Positions 33,001 through 39,000 of a stretch of DNA of 64,000 nt are shown in pieces; positions within the stretch are counted from its first letter, which is position 1; each line of letters opens with the position of its first letter. Position numbers: made by a program. This DNA is from Gloeobacterales cyanobacterium. GTDB lineage: Bacteria > Cyanobacteriota > Cyanobacteriia > Gloeobacterales > PMM-0068. The DNA is taken from NCBI GenBank assembly GCA_038245785.1, contig JBBRSB010000028.1, forward strand, positions 1 to 64,000. The letters are read 5' to 3'.

Positions 33001-36000
33001 TGCTTGCTATTTGCTGCCCGACGTACTGATTTCACTCGACTCACTGCATGAACATCTGGGTTGATGCTCAGTTGCCACAGATCTTATGGTTGACCTGTGG
33101 TAATGTTACGAACCGCAACTTACGGCGTCTACTTTCACTTACTCTACCTGATGCCCTAGAACGCTTACGGCAGGGGGAGATGATTGTAGAGATTGGATAG
33201 AACTTTCCAGGTCAGGCTGGTTCGAAACGAACTTCACTCACACGTTTGCCGGGTGCGGTCGGATCATTCCGATAGCGGATGATCAGTTTTTCAGAAGGGC
33301 GTTCCCAGGTGCAGTAAATAGATCCAGCAGCGCCTTCACAGCTAGTGGAATGCCAGTTATCAGATTCGCGCCAGGTTCGGGCGAATAGGACATTCACCAC
33401 TTCAGCCTTGGCGACCCGTTCTGCTGCTCTCTTGTCGTTCTTCCGCCAAGCTCGGTAGAGACGTTGTGCGGGGTTAATTACAGCCTCAGCGTTGCCCCTA
33501 GGGATAATTAAGGCTGAGGCGATTAGGGATGCCATAGTCAAATTGCGTAAGCGTTGGCTAAGTGTAGGCATTGGTATTTCCTTGCTACCTGTTCATTATC
33601 AAGCCTGTTTTTAGTTAGTCTTTAGAGTTTATGAACATATGTCCTTATTTCATGTATCTTTAGATTGGGCGACACTGTAGTGCCCTCGCGTTATAATTCA
33701 CTCCAATTCCCACTAGATATAGAGAAATATGGGTTACGTCAGCCTGCATACCCACAGCGAATATTCCCTATTAGATGGGGCTTCTCAGCTGCCCGACCTG
33801 ATAGAGCAAGCCAAAAAATTGAATATGCCTGCCATTGCGCTCACAGACCATGGCGTGATGTATGGAGCAATTGAGCTGATCAAGCGCTGTCGCAACATTG
33901 GGATGAAGCCGATTGTCGGGGTAGAAGCCTATGTGATCAATGGAGATGTACGGGATAAGAAAGCCCGTCTTCCTCGCTATCATCAAATTCTGTTAGCCAA
34001 AAATTACCAAGGCTATAAGAACCTCGTCAAATTAGTGACGATTTCTCATCTGGAAGGATCCTACTATAAGCCCCGGATTAATAAAGAACTATTAGAGCAA
34101 TATCATGAAGGTCTGATTGTTACTTCTGCCTGCTTGGGAGGAGAAATTCCTCAGGCTATCCTTCAAGGAAAAATAGAGAGAGCCTATGAAGTTGCAGTTT
34201 GGTATAAGCGGGTCTTCGGGGATGATTTCTATTTAGAAATTCAGGACCATGGTAGTCGAGAAGACCGAGCGGTTAATCCAGAAATTGTTCGAATTGCCCA
34301 GAAGTACAAGATTAAAATAGTGGCAACCAATGATTCTCACTTCACCTGCATGGATGATGTGGATGCCCATGATGCTTTGCTTTGTATCCAAACAGGCAAG
34401 TCTATTGAAGAAGAAAATCGTCTGCGTTATACCGGAACGGAATATCTAAAATCCCGCACAGAAATGGCAGGGATGTTCCGAGACCACTTGCCTTTAGAAA
34501 TTGTGGAAGAAGCACTTGAAAACACGTTGGAAATTGCAGACAAAGTAGAAAAATATGACCAAGAACTGCTGGGCGGAATGCGGATGCCCGACTTCCCCAT
34601 TCCTCAAGGTCATACTGCGGAAACCTATCTGGAAGAATTAACTTGGGAAGGACTGAGAGAACGATTTAAAGAAATAAAGATTGTCGATCCAGAAGAGAAA
34701 GTGCCCTATGAAGAGCGGCTCAAATATGAGCTGAAGATGATGCAACAGATGGGATTTTCTACCTATTTTCTAGTCGTTTGGGACTATATCAAATATGCCA
34801 GTGACCATGGCATTCCCGTCGGGCCAGGTAGAGGTTCTGCGGCAGGTTCTCTAGTCGCCTACGCGCTGCGCATTACGAACATGGACCCCGTGCGCTACAA
34901 CTTGCTGTTTGAACGATTCCTGAATCCTGAGCGTAAGTCTATGCCTGATATTGATACGGATTTCTGTATTGAACGACGGGGCGAAATCATTGAATACGTA
35001 ACAAAGCGTTATGGGGAAGACCACGTTGCCCAAATTATTACGTTTAACCGATTAGCTTCGAAGGCAGTCTTGAAAGACGTCGCCCGAGTTATGGAAATTC
35101 CATACAGTGAATCTGACCGGATGGCGAAGATGATTCCTGTTTTCCGAGGGAAGCCTGCCAAACTAGACAAAATGATTTCTGAGGATACGCCCGCTCCAGA
35201 ATTCAAAGAAGCTTATGATAAAGACCCAAGAGTTAAGAAATGGGTAGATCTGGCCCGTCGGTTAGAGAATACAAACAAAACTTTTGGAGTTCATGCTGCA
35301 GGGGTGGTTATTTCCCGCGAACCGCTTGATGAGATTGTGCCTTTACAGAAGAATAATGAAGGTCAAGTCATCACCCAATACTATATGGAAGACATTGCAG
35401 ACTTGGGTCTGTTGAAGATGGACTTCTTGGGCTTGCGGAACTTGACCATGATTCAAAGGGCGTTAGAAATTATTGAAGCCAAGAATAAAGAAGTCATTGA
35501 TTTAGACACCCTGAGCTTAGATGATGAAAAAACCTATGCCCTGCTAGCGAAGGGAGAACTTGAAGGGATATTCCAATTAGAATCATCAGGAATGAAACAG
35601 ATTGTAAAAGATTTGCGCCCTTCAAACATTGAAGATATTTCTGCTATCTTGGCGCTCTATCGTCCTGGTCCTCTAGATGCAGGAATGATTCCTGACTTTA
35701 TTAACCGCAAACACGGTCGTCAGAAAATTCAATATGATGATCCTCTATTAGAGCCGATTCTAAAAGACACCTATGGGACTATTCTCTATCAAGAGCAAAT
35801 CATGAAAATTGCTCAAGATTTGGGAGGTTATTCCCTAGGACAAGCAGACCTATTGCGTCGTGCGATGGGTAAAAAGAAAGCTTCTGAGATGGAAAAACAT
35901 CGTGAGCAATTTGTCGATGGGGCTACCCGCAATGGTGTTAACGCAAAGACTGCAACTAATCTGTTTGAACAGATGGTTATGTTCGCGGAATATTGTCTGA

Positions 36001-39000
36001 GCTATGATACTGAACTACTAACCCTTGAATATGGGCCTCTATCTATCGGTAAGATTGTAGATGAACAAATAGAGTGCACGGTCTACAGTGTGAATGCACA
36101 GGGCCATCTTTATACGCAACCTATCGCCCAATGGCATCATCGCGGGGAGCAAGAAGTTCTTGAGTATTCCTTAGAAGATGGTTCACGGATTCGAGCGACA
36201 AAAGACCATAAGTTTATGACTACTAATGGTCAAATGTTCCCTATTCACGAGATCTTCGAACAGGGTCTTGATCTAGTGTGCATGGGAGGCCTGTAGTCAT
36301 GCCAACTCGCTACGGCCAGTCAACGCTCGACCAAAAACAACAAATCATCGAAATATTCAATGTTGGTGTGGAATGCCGAGAGATTCCTAAATGTTTGGGA
36401 ATCAGTGAGAGGAGTGTTTCTAGAGTCTTAATCGAAGCAGGAATTAACACTAAACGAAGAAATCGGTACACCCTGAATGAAACCTATTTTGACAAAATTG
36501 ATTCTCAGGTTAAAGCTTATCTCTTGGGACTGTTAGCAGCGGATGGCTGTGTCACTAAAACCAACTATGTGTCTTTTGAGTCTGTTGATGGAAATTTAAC
36601 TGAACTACTGAAAACAGAGCTGCAATATACTGGGGAAACTAGACTTATCTTCCCAAAAGACTATGCTCCTCACTATCGGATTAATTTTTCTTCCAAGCAA
36701 TTAGCTCACGCTCTATCTCGACAGGGTGTCCAGGTAGGGAGAGGGGAATCTGGTCTGTTCTATTTTCCCGAAACAGAATTTTTAAGTTCTTACATACTGG
36801 GCTACTTTGATGGAGATGGCTGTGCCCATGTCAATAAAGGTAGAAGTGGGGGCTCACTGAGCATCGTGGGTTCTTTAGAATTTACAAGCGAAGTGGCAAG
36901 ACTTTTAGGTGTGGGCTCTATACAGAGACATCATTCAAAACCAGTGTACTACTGGAGAATTTTTAGCCGCATCAATATACAGGCATTCTACAACTTGGTA
37001 TACAAGGTGCCTTCATTAGGATTACAGCGCAAAAAAATCAAAATTGAACAGATTTTAGGGAGCTATCGACGTGGTTAAAATCATTAGCTGTACATCATTA
37101 GGGACTCAATCTGTTTATGACATTGGTGTTGAGCAGGACCATAACTTTGTTCTAGCAAATGGTTTAGTGGCTTCTAATTGCTTCAACAAAGCACATTCTG
37201 CTGCCTATGGATTAATTACTTATCAAACAGCTTATCTTAAAGCAAATTACCCCGTAGAGTATTTAGCAGCGCTGCTCTCTTCTGTTAGAGGAGACCAGGA
37301 TAAAGTTCAACGTTACTTGGCTGCCTGTCAGGTCATGGGCATTTATGTATTGCCTCCAGATATCAATCGTTCTGGTCCTGACTTTACGCCGGAAGGGAAA
37401 ACCATCTTATTTGGACTTGCGGCGGTTAAAAATGCAGGAGACGCTGCGGTAGATAGTCTGCTCAAAGTGCGTGACCAAGAAGGTCCATTCACTTCTCTTG
37501 CCGATATCTGTGACCGTATTGATAGTCGGGTTGTCAACAAAAGAGCCTTAGAAGCCTTGATTCGTTGTGGAGCCTTGGATACGCTCCATAGCAATCGCAA
37601 TCAGATGCTTTGTGACCTGGAACTTACTCTGGAATGGTCTATCCGCCGAGCACGAGACCGAGCCTCGGGACAAGTCAATCTTTTTGATAGCTTGTTGTCT
37701 GGAACGAGCACAGCGGAACAAATGTTTGATAGCGCTCCTAAAGGACCCATCGTCGAAGATTTACTTCCCCAAGATAAGCTCAAGATGGAAAAGGAACTGC
37801 TGGGTTTCTATGTTTCTGACCATCCCCTCAAATCCATAAGAGAAGTGGCTAGAATCTTGGCACCGATTAATCTGATTGATCTACCGGATTATCGAGAGGA
37901 AGCATCGGTCAGCGCCATTATTTTAGTTACAGAAATGAAAGTAGTGACTACGAAAAAGGGTGACCGGATGGCGATTCTGCAAGTAGAAGACCTTACTGGA
38001 AGCGCCAGTGCTATTCTCTTTCCAAAAGCCTATGAGCGCTTAAATGAATGCTTTAAGCCCGATGCCCGCTTGATGATCTGGGCCAAGGTAGACCATAAAG
38101 ATGACCAGCCTCAGTTAATCCTCAATGATGCCGAACCGATTGAGGATGTCCGCATGATTTTGGTTGAACTTTCTCCAAACCAAGCGAGAGAAATCCAAGT
38201 CCAGCATCGATTGCGTGAACTGCTGGGGAGTCAAGCGCCTGAGAAGAAAGAAGAGCTTGGATTGGTACCTGTGATTGCCCGGATTGATTTTGGACAGGAA
38301 CATCGCTTCGTTCGCTTTGGCCCCCAGTTCCGCGTCAAGAATGCAGATGCTACGGTCGCCCTTCTCAATCAATCAGGATTTAGTGCTCAAACCCAGACCG
38401 TAGTTCCTGCGGTGGGGTGAGGAGGGCTATCTTTCAACCTCTTGTTCTTGATTAATATGGATGCGATCCATGCCTTCTTTAATCCAATCAATACAATCTT
38501 GTTCACAGATGAATATTTTAGGGGCGGCGATATTATCTAGACCGTGGGGAGGATAGTGGTCATAAAAATACTTGCCTGCCATTTCAAAGATGATGATTAA
38601 GTTATCTCGATAAGTGTATCGATTTTTAAAGTAATCAGTTTCGGAAGGTGTTGCTGAATGGGTATCTAGATATTCTTTAGCAATAGTGACAATTCCTTCT
38701 GGACTATCCGTACAAAGTCCTCCTGGATTTTCTACCTGGTGGAAACGACCTTCCAGACCCAATTCAGACAATAAGATATAGGAATATAAAGGCTTATCGT
38801 GCATGAGGGAGATGGTAGAAAATCTGAAAGGAATGAGCAGATGTCCCCGATAGGAAATAGATTTTTCGTAGAGCAATCGCATGTTAGTTCCCTCTAAGGG
38901 AGTGCCTATTGTAAGGGGCTTTGATACCCCTTACAACCAGCTTGGATCTATAATCTGGCCACAGTAAAAGGTAAGACCGATGCTTGAGTTGGTTCATAGA

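Follow-up and report, generated by a model that had tools for sequence, protein, structure and literature searches.

The dnaE locus

The window, the whole 64,000-nt stretch of DNA analysed here, holds dnaE in two parts with a third open reading frame (ORF) between them, all on the forward (+) strand. The first ORF (33729–36296, 855 aa, stop codon TAG at 36294–36296) encodes the N-extein (33729..35993, 755 aa, ending ...FAEY), in which ORF calling and Pfam place the PHP domain, the Pol III alpha core (DNA_pol3_alpha) and the fingers, followed by an N-terminal intein half (IntN) of 100 aa plus the stop codon (35994..36296); the ORF also gives a sub-threshold Intein_splicing match. The last ORF runs from a GTG at 37071 to 38420 (449 aa) and starts with a C-terminal intein half (IntC) of 36 aa (37071..37178), which ends ...DHNFVLANGLVASN and gives a sub-threshold Intein_splicing match at residues 3–36. 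It continues into the C-extein (37179..38420, 413 aa plus stop), which begins CFNK and contains the Pfam domains HHH_6 and OB fold. Between the two lies a free-standing homing endonuclease gene (HEG; 36299..37078, 259 aa), matched by Pfam LAGLIDADG_3 in two stretches (E = 1.5e-12).

The HEG is in frame +2 relative to dnaE, 2 nt after the dnaE-N stop, and its last 8 nt (37071–37078) are shared with the beginning of the IntC ORF. The longest ORF for the HEG would start from a GTG at 36278, but the ATG at 36299 aligns with M1 of 6/6 aligned homologues. Coordinates given for all three ORFs in an earlier note on this DNA were confirmed by ORF reading, and the 8-nt overlap, the frame shared by the two dnaE parts and the 774 nt separating them were read directly from the sequence. 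Pol III alpha (PF07733) has a single match and the HEG a single copy in this 98%-complete genome, making this the sole dnaE. IntN, HEG and IntC together form a cassette of 1185 nt (35994..37178) that is missing from the dnaE of a congener and is skipped by a contig of an independent metagenome run. The region is probably a fractured gene, that is, a mobile cassette inside the sole dnaE of an early-branching cyanobacterium.

Upstream of dnaE-N, a sigma-70-like promoter match, GCGACA-17-TATAAT (33669..33697, +), agrees in consensus only, and promoter-like sites in the region are not enriched (6 found vs 9.6 expected). Shine-Dalgarno-like runs precede both downstream genes: GGGAGG (36284..36289, +), 9 nt 5′ of the HEG ATG and within the end of dnaE-N, and GGGAG (37058..37062, +), 8 nt 5′ of the IntC GTG and within the end of the HEG; their function is presumed from sequence. 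Genus g3 has a homologous AGGAG at the position matching the latter. Because the three ORFs are tightly packed and each downstream gene has such a run inside the end of the preceding ORF, they are most likely expressed from one transcript via coupled translation.

The intein halves and the insertion site

Comparison of IntN with PDB sequences matched it to the Npu-type DnaE inteins 4lx3 and 4qfq (E = 3e-45, 97 aa aligned), which, together with 1zd7 and 2keq, we take to represent the Ssp / Npu DnaE naturally split intein. The window intein is 75–77% identical to the Npu/Ssp inteins. DnaE split inteins are widely used in protein engineering, and the cassette looks like a mobile form of them.

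IntN begins CLSYDTE, with C1 at 35994, and its T69 and H72 lie within ATKDHKF; at the other end the junction reads LVASN|CFNK. All of the splicing residues (C1, block-B T..H, the terminal Asn and Cys+1, ...ASN|C) are thus present across the two halves. The break is at the classical FAEY|CFNK site, where the exteins join as in the intein-less congener, and 40 inteins compared at this Pol III alpha point share the junction. ORFs, Pfam domains and the PDB match together bear out the earlier statement that dnaE is broken at the classical split-intein site, with its halves head to tail and an out-of-frame HEG between them.

In insertion site, split point and catalytic residues the window agrees with the Ssp/Npu DnaE split intein, and its halves of 100 and 36 aa fit the ~100–123 aa of IntN and 35–36 aa of IntC in that intein. 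According to the accessible text of Novikova et al. 2016 (PMC4760082), the Ssp/Npu site is Pol III alpha insertion point 'a'. The arrangement is where the two differ: the classical halves, as far as these sources describe them, lie at distant loci without an endonuclease, whereas in the window a single strand carries both, separated by 774 nt and flanking the HEG. Halves are likewise dispersed in most other intein-bearing genomes of the sample. Given the homology to the Npu/Ssp inteins and a sole dnaE in a 98%-complete genome, DnaE-N-IntN and IntC-DnaE-C would be expected to associate and then join by protein trans-splicing, as the Npu and Ssp inteins do.

The endonuclease

The HEG product is predicted to be a single-chain LAGLIDADG homing endonuclease, with two motifs and an alpha-beta-beta-alpha-beta-beta-alpha double-domain fold. 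Its AF2 model (pLDDT 87.6, pTM 0.87) had 141 PDB matches at E ≤ 0.001 in Foldseek, with LAGLIDADG enzymes at the head; the top matches were the single-chain enzymes E-DreI, I-Tsp061I and I-DmoI (E from 5e-8 to 2e-5). Like the window HEG, these three carry the LAGLIDADG motif twice, with a conserved acidic residue in each copy, and the predicted fold agrees with theirs. Their sequence identity to the HEG is only 12–21%, however, and the HEG has an additional three-helix, HTH-like N-terminal part (residues ~10–46). Motif 1, LGLLAADGC, is encoded at 36524–36550 (+) and motif 2, LGYFDGDGC, at 36797–36823 (+); D82 and D171/D173 are invariant among 41 homologues, and the full-length window HEG keeps every residue that is invariant in that set. 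Across 111 pairs with usable dS, the median dN/dS of the HEG was 0.148 (range 0.087–0.352), indicating that the family is under purifying selection. Motifs, fold and homology uphold the reading of the locus as an Ssp/Npu-type DnaE split intein in its fractured-gene form, with a single-chain LAGLIDADG HEG.

Rather than invading a mini-intein, the HEG may once have been the in-frame endonuclease domain of a full-length intein that was freed by frameshifts, an origin we consider rather doubtful. It sits exactly where inteins canonically carry an inserted endonuclease domain, as such an origin would predict, and at locus L120 of P0121 an IntN and a 40%-identical HEG are in one frame with no stop between them. 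However, the window HEG has its own start codon, its own Shine-Dalgarno-like run and the HTH-like part, and its distant full-length relatives (25–37% identity, N-terminal part included) are free-standing or intron-encoded endonucleases of phages and plasmids. Frame relations of IntN, HEG and IntC also vary by lineage (0/+2/0 in the window vs 2/0/1 in genus g3), and a contiguous IntN-HEG-IntC was not found among longer proteins (2 matches at E ≤ 1e-10), although this last point carries little weight.

Distribution within the order and genus

Every one of the 14 genomes surveyed in the order gave a dnaE match. Outside the genus, dnaE is a single intein-less open frame of 1157–1219 aa in 11/11 genomes, matching the third ORF of the window from residue 32/33. 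Within the genus, the window genome (G000) and its two congeners, G412 and G413, are metagenome-type assemblies of 255 (window) to ~350 contigs. G413 has an intein-less frame of 1170 aa, so that the survey bears out the distribution reported earlier (intein-less in 11 genomes outside the genus and in one of two congeners). In a blastn comparison with G413, position 35996 of the window joins 37179, which leaves a clean 1185-nt insertion in the window between collinear exteins (87% nucleotide identity for the N-extein, 82% for the C-extein). In the extein tree the window groups with G413 (99*), and the clade around them (98*) comprises 13 intein-less rows. Since 11/11 other genomes of the order and one of two congeners are without the cassette, and the insertion is clean, a gain within the genus of the window, after its split from the rest of the order, is supported.

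G412 has the cassette with the same junctions as the window, and its IntC stands at the start of a contig. The claim that the sister genome has the same arrangement held for these junctions and failed for the HEG, which is not whole there: a 143-codon in-frame deletion (contig C257) removes residues 92–234. Within the genus the exteins are related as ((G412,G413),G000), with nucleotide identities of 0.92 vs 0.85, yet the cassette is found in G000 and G412. Between these two genomes, third-codon identity is higher in the cassette (176/227) than in the exteins (733/1169; Fisher p = 1.3e-5) or in the ±600-nt flanks (249/400; p = 8.7e-5). This higher identity supports movement or conversion of the cassette between congeners after their split. 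No co-conversion tract was visible at the junction: the filled alleles share only 2 sites, ≤24 nt downstream, and 150-nt windows showed no enrichment.

Run X3, an independent metagenome from another study than that of the probable source, includes a contig whose joint, 35991 to 37177, skips exactly 1185 nt, with 4 letters fitting either side. The same run also holds cassette contigs, and hence filled and empty alleles together, as well as further deletion joints inside the HEG.

These comparative patterns are best explained by homing. The predicted target of the endonuclease is the junction sequence of dnaE alleles that have no intein; repair of the cut from a cassette-bearing copy would then insert the whole cassette. 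The cassette would have entered the genus after the split from the order, and would then have moved or been converted between congeners. We consider it likely that the cassette was gained in the genus in this way, as a fractured gene of the type described by Dassa et al. (2009, PMC2677866) at the canonical DnaE site.

The cassette in other cyanobacteria

The cassette is not special to the lineage of the window. It is present in other cyanobacteria, isolates among them, at 33 loci (Microcoleus, Chamaesiphon, Aerosakkonema, Phormidium and others). All HEG loci in species-representative genomes (33/33) are at the dnaE split site, with IntN-HEG-IntC on a single contig in 28/33 and cut by contig ends in the remaining 5/33; 259 protein clusters match the HEG at E ≤ 1e-3. 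Split point, HEG family and the 8-nt overlap are common to all lineages, and all 9 loci of genus g3 have the same 8-nt ATGGTTAA/GTGGTTAA stop/start overlap. A 204-kb phage-like contig carries a cassette at the same site.

Genus g3 has the cassette in 9/19 genomes and an intein-less single ORF in 10/19, and HEG-bearing and intein-less exteins are intermingled at near-zero distance in the extein tree. Besides intact HEGs, the family as a whole includes decayed or deleted ones, halves that lie side by side with no HEG, halves that are dispersed, and a contiguous mini-intein produced by re-fusion; judged from sequence, it displays every stage of the homing cycle. Presence/absence polymorphism was found together with an element history unlike that of the host gene, a combination that would mark the cassette as a homing element.

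Many cassette copies appear to be dead, given the HEG deletion in G412 and damaged HEGs in at least 5/33 loci, where the lesions include an early stop codon, a shifted frame and an inserted IS element. It is conceivable, although unlikely, that the window cassette too arrived by homing and is now a passenger, its HEG inactive or in another role and kept since dnaE needs both halves. Such decay, seen also in the deletion joints of run X3, is what this would lead one to expect, and the window genome has no intein-less target left. Yet the window HEG is full length with all invariant residues, motif aspartates included, the HEG family as a whole shows purifying selection, and the run with cassette contigs also has contigs of close relatives whose alleles are intein-less.

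Divergence and origin

The closest cassette outside the genus has 71–72% protein identity, crown copies overall 58–72%, and dS between the window HEG and outside copies is saturated in 22/23 comparisons and 3.0 in the other. Entry into the genus would thus not be recent on the scale of synonymous sites, and no donor was found among the copies compared. The intein tree was without resolution of its branching order; in a cassette tree whose root lay on a long outgroup branch, the window cassette nested inside the crown with no starred support, and an AU test did not reject monophyly of the crown cassettes (p = 0.124). With dS saturated and donor nesting not significant, two claims of the earlier note stand only in part. 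The cassette as 'newly homed' into this lineage agrees with a gain within the genus and movement between congeners, but not with the low closest identity, the saturated dS and the missing co-conversion tract. The denial of one ancient irreversible break is right in that the data contradict inheritance that is strictly vertical and irreversible, as well as a single genomic uncoupling; a single origin of the fracture nevertheless fits the split point, HEG family and overlap that all lineages have in common.

That single origin, the saturated dS, the AU result and the lack of a visible co-conversion tract would also suit a cassette that was present in the cyanobacterial ancestor and was precisely lost elsewhere in the order and in one congener with no horizontal movement, a scenario we regard as improbable. 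Under it, G413 and 11/11 genomes from the rest of the order must have lost the cassette precisely. Between G000 and G412 the cassette is also less diverged than their exteins are, while the exteins pair G412 with the intein-less G413. Moreover, in comparisons with 34 crown genomes the window extein was farther than the median crown extein in 34/34, yet the window intein was closer than the median crown intein in 19/34.

A crown-cyanobacterium cassette from the same sample mis-joined to the window dnaE is extremely improbable: the assembly has 255 contigs and the G412 contigs break within the HEG, but both junctions lie within one contig with order-typical exteins on either side, the protein identity of the cassette to crown copies is just 58–72%, the junctions recur in the second assembly, G412, and a contig of run X1 (the probable source, hence not independent) covers the whole stretch with 0 differences.

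Relation to known systems

Dassa, London, Stoddard, Schueler-Furman & Pietrokovski (2009, PMC2677866) proposed, in the accessible text, that an HEG invades an intein, with later HEG loss and genomic uncoupling, and explicitly named cyanobacterial DnaE as the end state. Their fractured genes, as described there, resemble the window in having a split intein that breaks a conserved gene of replication in two, and an endonuclease gene that stands free between the intein halves. They differ in that the three DnaE loci are at other integration points, whereas the window is at the canonical site; in having GIY-YIG or Vsr-like endonucleases (LAGLIDADG has 0 mentions in that text) rather than a LAGLIDADG HEG; in being metagenomic and mainly phage-like, where the window host is a cellular chromosome; and in inteins only ~40% similar to the cyanobacterial ones. 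Our literature search found no published description of this cis DnaE cassette family.

More tentatively, the LAGLIDADG cassette could represent 'step III' of the 2009 model, the missing mobile form from which all Ssp/Npu-type split inteins descend. The trans arrangement would then have arisen repeatedly via HEG decay and uncoupling, with reversion to a contiguous mini-intein, and the cassette would still be invading intein-less dnaE phylum-wide, including this early-branching order, possibly via phage-borne dnaE of the kind on the 204-kb phage-like contig. If so, the textbook trans-split DnaE intein is a repeated end product of a still mobile cassette.

A second comparison is with the cyanobacterial dnaX intein (Phillips, DeSimone & Gogarten, bioRxiv 10.64898/2026.09.14.751524), for which a secondary HEG invasion of a mini-intein was proposed; the accessible text has 0 mentions of 'split' and 'fractured' and one passing mention of dnaE. 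As described there, it resembles the window in that the host gene belongs to the replisome, the LAGLIDADG HEG is out of frame with the intein and under purifying selection, and the distribution is sporadic with intein-free alleles. The dnaX intein is one contiguous ORF with the HEG overlapping it, whereas in the window gene and intein are truly in two ORFs.

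Anatomy of the broken dnaE gene

The dnaE gene is divided among three open reading frames on the + strand. ORF 1 (33729-36296, 855 aa) encodes DNA polymerase III alpha over its N-terminal three quarters, with PHP, core and finger domains (Pfam, E 4e-57 to 1e-99). Its C-terminal 100 residues form an IntN that begins with CLSYDTE, contains T69 and H72, and matches the N-halves of Npu-type DnaE inteins in the PDB (4lx3, 4qfq, 2keq) over 97 residues with E ~3e-45. ORF 2 (ATG 36299 to TAA 37078, 259 aa), 2 nt beyond the ORF 1 TAG and in a different frame, is a free-standing homing endonuclease gene (HEG) that LAGLIDADG_3 matches in two stretches (Pfam, E 1.5e-12). 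ORF 3 (GTG 37071 to 38420, 449 aa) overlaps the HEG end by 8 nt and opens with a 36-residue IntC terminating ...DHNFVLANGLVASN, followed by CFNK and the remainder of DnaE with its HHH_6 and OB-fold domains (Pfam). ORF calls, sequence, Pfam and PDB sequence comparison bear out every coordinate and motif in the earlier note, which had described two head-to-tail dnaE halves with an out-of-frame endonuclease gene between them. The genome (98% complete, 255 contigs) contains one HEG copy and one Pol III alpha match, and the broken dnaE is therefore its sole replicative polymerase.

Neither promoter-like nor terminator-like sites were found between the three ORFs, and promoter-like sites are not enriched in the region; a single weak terminator-like hairpin (36941-36955) lies within the HEG. 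A GGGAGG run is positioned 9 nt 5' of the HEG start, within ORF 1, and a GGGAG 8 nt 5' of the IntC start, within the HEG. The alternative that the three ORFs represent one frameshifted contiguous intein is ruled out, since it requires two shifts and the frame relations vary by lineage (0/+2/0 in the window, 2/0/1 in g3, another cyanobacterial genus); the overlap of dnaE-N with the HEG start in some loci also counts against it.

Fold, selection and relatives of the endonuclease

The AlphaFold2 model of the HEG product, built from 41 homologues (mean pLDDT 87.6, pTM 0.87), has three short helices at its N-terminus and then two alpha-beta-beta-alpha-beta-beta-alpha halves. A Foldseek comparison with the PDB returned 141 matches at E<=0.001, headed by the single-chain LAGLIDADG enzymes E-DreI, I-Tsp061I, bI3 maturase, I-DmoI and PI-PfuI. 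The aspartates of both LAGLIDADG motifs (D82, D171 and D173) are invariant among the 41 sequences. Pairwise comparison of 24 intact copies gave a median dN/dS of 0.148 (range 0.087-0.352) across the 111 pairs whose synonymous divergence was usable; the HEG family is maintained by selection.

Distant full-length relatives, with 25-37% identity that includes the N-terminal part, are free-standing or intron-encoded endonuclease genes of phages and Firmicute plasmids. No close copy was found on such elements by tblastn: all 146 phage and 11 plasmid records are below 60% identity, with the best rows at 25-34%. A scan of IMG/VR gave 124 relatives, the best 80 of which are at most 37% identical, and a crude pattern search for intein-like motifs near these 80 found none (0/80). 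One full-length relative (26% identity) is the endonuclease ORF036 of Bacillus phage 0305phi8-36, encoded by an intron in the Pol III alpha gene (within NC_009760.1 164051-171824). This intron was ruled out as a same-site counterpart, as its position in dnaE is a different one, close to the PDxD catalytic motif.

We propose that the three ORFs would be expressed from one transcript with coupled translation, that the two DnaE halves would be joined by trans-splicing, and that the endonuclease would cut the intein-less FAEY/CFNK junction, with repair copying the cassette. What is established here beneath this scheme is the anatomy, the homology to active DnaE inteins, the intact endonuclease fold and motif residues, the purifying selection on the HEG, the presence/absence polymorphism and the younger age of the cassette relative to its host gene.

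The same cassette in other cyanobacteria

In a search of 401 genomes of the phylum, the HEG turned up in a single other genus, g3, where 9 of the 19 genomes have it at 62-67% identity. Scanning one genome per species yielded 33 HEG loci, with a best match outside the window's genus of 71%. Many are from Microcoleus, among them M. vaginatus FACHB-2002 and HSN003 (a complete genome), and others are from Lyngbya CCAP 1446/10, Aerosakkonema BLCC-F183, Phormidium pseudopriestleyi FRX01, Chamaesiphon polymorphus CCALA 037, Planktothrix UBA8402, several MAGs and the sister genome G412. The HEG sits at the dnaE split site in all 33; IntN, HEG and IntC share one contig in 28, and contig ends cut the other 5. 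In a large protein collection, 259 clusters match the HEG at E<=1e-3, and the names on these protein matches include Gloeocapsopsis, Chroococcidiopsis, Ancylothrix, Elainellaceae and Trichothermofontia.

The overlap of HEG stop and IntC start (GTGGTTAA in the window) is identical, ATGGTTAA, in 9/9 g3 loci, which fits a single origin of the cassette. At least 5 of the 33 loci are visibly damaged, by a premature stop, by a frameshift at the C-terminal end or loss of codons, by an IS element in HSN003 and by the sister-genome deletion. The HSN003 locus (CP031705.1 3732703-3741194, a complete genome) has an insert of ~2.5 kb after about HEG residue 164 that encodes transposase-like ORFs, and IntN and IntC are intact on both sides of it. 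The dnaE-N frames of Aerosakkonema, P. pseudopriestleyi and three further genomes (G125, G218, G178) are 1200-1320 aa long and contain, ahead of the canonical site, at least one additional intein.

How the canonical site varies across the class

The canonical site was surveyed in the same 401 genomes with two queries, extein+IntN and IntC+extein. Counted by hand from the rows listed, an IntN is present at this site in ~110 of 177 genomes of the same class, and ~65 are intein-less. In g3, IntN and HEG occur in exactly the same 9 genomes, and the remaining 10 of 19 have an intein-less single ORF of ~1280-1307 aa; filled and empty exteins of this genus are interleaved in the extein tree at near-zero distance. 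The halves of the remaining intein bearers are mostly distant or on separate contigs, which is the classical state.

Several loci are exceptional. In G312 (locus L064, G312:C21:25000-29000, - strand) the halves are 108 nt apart, and the gap (2203-2310) retains ~23 codons from the start of the HEG and ~15 from its end, with the HEG stop/IntC start overlap kept; it is a deletion scar of the HEG. In G246 (locus L065, G246:C106:54500-62500) a 1596-aa dnaE (ORF 2332-7119) has a contiguous mini-intein at the canonical site, with IntN joined directly to IntC (...GLELKQINSKSH/VKIISRK...VGSN/CFNK), and, further upstream, another intein in which a LAGLIDADG-like remnant is present. Between the halves lie a gene for an Uma2-family 'putative restriction endonuclease' (PF05685, E 6e-23) in G017 (L060), a 237-aa ORF without Pfam match in G346 (L061), and a 708-aa ORF without Pfam match in G047 (L062); these genes may be further nucleases or cargo in place of the HEG. 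Three genomes of one genus (G328, G008 and G092) have gaps of 1.7, 6.2 and 8.2 kb between the halves. Together, the exceptional states resemble a series of steps leading from the cassette to dispersed halves, along with a reversal in which the intein became contiguous again.

Implications for the DnaE split intein

The Ssp/Npu DnaE split intein is widely used in protein ligation, split Cas9 and dual-AAV work. To our knowledge, the only account of how it arose is a model, in which one ancient irreversible break was followed by loss of an endonuclease that was never seen. The loci described here reveal the endonuclease in place at the canonical site, both on chromosomes of cultured strains and in an early-branching lineage, and all later stages (decayed HEG, adjacent halves, re-fused contiguous intein and dispersed halves) are also visible; the model therefore becomes testable at the bench and by phylogeny. 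As a resource, they comprise ~260 natural LAGLIDADG enzymes that form a new family and whose predicted target in dnaE is defined and highly conserved, as well as dozens of Npu-like split inteins that are also new and have native CFN exteins. The window is one member of a large family that went unnoticed in public genomes.

The cassette has the same layout as the fractured genes reported by Dassa et al. 2009 (PMC2677866). That paper places its three DnaE loci at integration points other than the cyanobacterial one and describes its endonucleases as GIY-YIG or Vsr-like types; it treats the cyanobacterial DnaE with separate loci as the final step of the model, with the endonuclease lost, and cites the 'single, irreversible breaking event' view from Caspi et al. 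2003. In the window, the classical DnaE split intein takes the fractured-gene form, has a LAGLIDADG HEG and lies on a cellular chromosome. Novikova et al. 2016 state that known inteins at this point are all split (PMC4760082), unlike the contiguous mini-intein of G246. A 2026 preprint on a cyanobacterial dnaX intein (10.64898/2026.09.14.751524) describes an out-of-frame LAGLIDADG HEG within a contiguous intein; dnaE is named there once and the word 'split' is absent. No account of a DnaE split intein kept in cis around a HEG turned up in full-text literature searches, which did not reach subscription journals or intein databases.

Source of the cassette

For the window's cassette, a donor among crown cyanobacteria, perhaps via a phage-borne dnaE, is plausible but unproven. 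The window extein is farther than the median crown extein from all 34 crown genomes compared, yet for 19 of these 34 the window intein lies nearer than the median crown intein does. In a regression of intein on extein identity, the window residual is just 0.6 sd. Synonymous divergence between the window HEG and outside copies is saturated for 22 of 23 (dS of the 23rd, 3.0), and an intein-only tree (40 rows, 132 columns) is a polytomy whose deep nodes lack resolution.

A search among longer proteins found P0121, the product of locus L120 (584-6851) on a 204-kb metagenome contig that is phage-like (PHROG matches to HNH endonuclease, exonuclease and primase). Its dnaE is in four pieces, with an HNH gene in one gap; at the canonical site the IntN is fused in frame with a 40%-identical HTH-LAGLIDADG HEG (546-aa ORF), and an overlapping IntC+dnaE-C ORF follows. 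In an IntN+HEG+IntC tree rooted on the long branch of L120, the window falls among the crown cassettes, adjoining a 'Synechococcales' MAG, with supports of 84-93, none starred; the AU test on this tree did not reject crown monophyly (p 0.124).

Gain in the genus and movement between congeners

With ORF 3 as query, every one of the 14 genomes in the window's order was surveyed. The 11 outside the genus have dnaE as one open frame of 1157-1219 aa, matched only from residue 32/33. Within the genus, G412 has the split form and G413 has a 1170-aa dnaE without intein that reads ...FAEY/CFNK.... The window and G413 are collinear across dnaE (blastn), with 35996 abutting 37179, and exactly 1185 nt (35994-37178) are therefore extra in the window. 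In a flanking-extein tree (270 residues, 62 genomes) the two pair with a starred support of 99, nested in a clade with a starred support of 98 whose 13 other rows are all intein-less. The earlier note had read the cassette as a still-mobile form newly homed into this lineage, an interpretation that is partly supported: the gain in the genus, as a clean 1185-nt insertion, stands, and 'newly homed' is only partly backed, since dS against outside copies is saturated and nesting among crown cassettes is not significant (AU p 0.124). An essential gene has been invaded here in an intein-free order, which makes this a clear example of a split intein spreading horizontally. What the window itself contributes is clean evidence for such a gain in an early-branching order that is intein-free otherwise; the 'early-branching' label is that of the earlier note, and extein distances are consistent with it.

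Extein DNA identity is 0.923 between G412 and G413, 0.847 between the window's genome and G412, and 0.854 between the window's genome and G413; the two cassette bearers are therefore not mutual closest relatives. Between these two bearers, cassette DNA identity is 0.88-0.90 over the parts common to both (IntN, first 91 HEG codons and IntC). The G412 HEG is damaged, with residues 92-234 missing in frame on contig C257, where the assembly breaks. Third codon positions match at 176/227 in the cassette vs. 733/1169 in the exteins (Fisher p 1.3e-5) and 249/400 in the +-600-nt flanks (p 8.7e-5); the cassette thus postdates the split between its two hosts. Simple vertical descent with loss in G413 does not fit. 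The pattern agrees with homing, or with gene conversion among lineages of this genus. A point against this reading is that no co-conversion tract is visible at the junction by sliding identity or site patterns; sites common to the two filled alleles are not enriched near it.

Other differences between the window and G413 lie outside the cassette. A segment of ~870 nt (32756-33629) is missing upstream of dnaE at the syntenic place in G413; it holds three small ORFs, at 32827-33051 (DUF433, E 5e-25), 33048-33200 and 33212-33571 (- strand), and may be a small toxin-antitoxin-like insert. Downstream, similarity stops at the dnaE stop (window 38409 onward), and an ORF at 38427-38882 (- strand, 151 aa, no Pfam match) and a glucan phosphorylase gene are unmatched in the 8 kb of G413 compared.

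Filled and empty alleles in metagenomes

Public sequencing runs were compared as assembled contigs only, at >=82% likeness to the window stretch. One contig of run X1, the probable source of the assembly and thus not independent, spans the whole stretch with 0 differences, and contigs of runs X2 and X8 leave parts of it uncovered. Run X3, from another study, has a contig whose joint (35991 to 37177, 4 letters fitting either side) skips 1185 nt and continues into the intein-less CFNK flank. The same run has contigs over IntN, HEG and IntC that are ~7-11% diverged from the window, and at least two different HEG-internal deletions, e.g. 36341 to 37035 (693 nt skipped) and another at 36362. Empty, filled and HEG-deleted alleles of close relatives are thus present in one sample, with contig depths that are not comparable, and may belong to different species of the genus. 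Together with the 143-codon deletion in G412, the X3 deletions indicate that HEG loss is recurrent within the genus.
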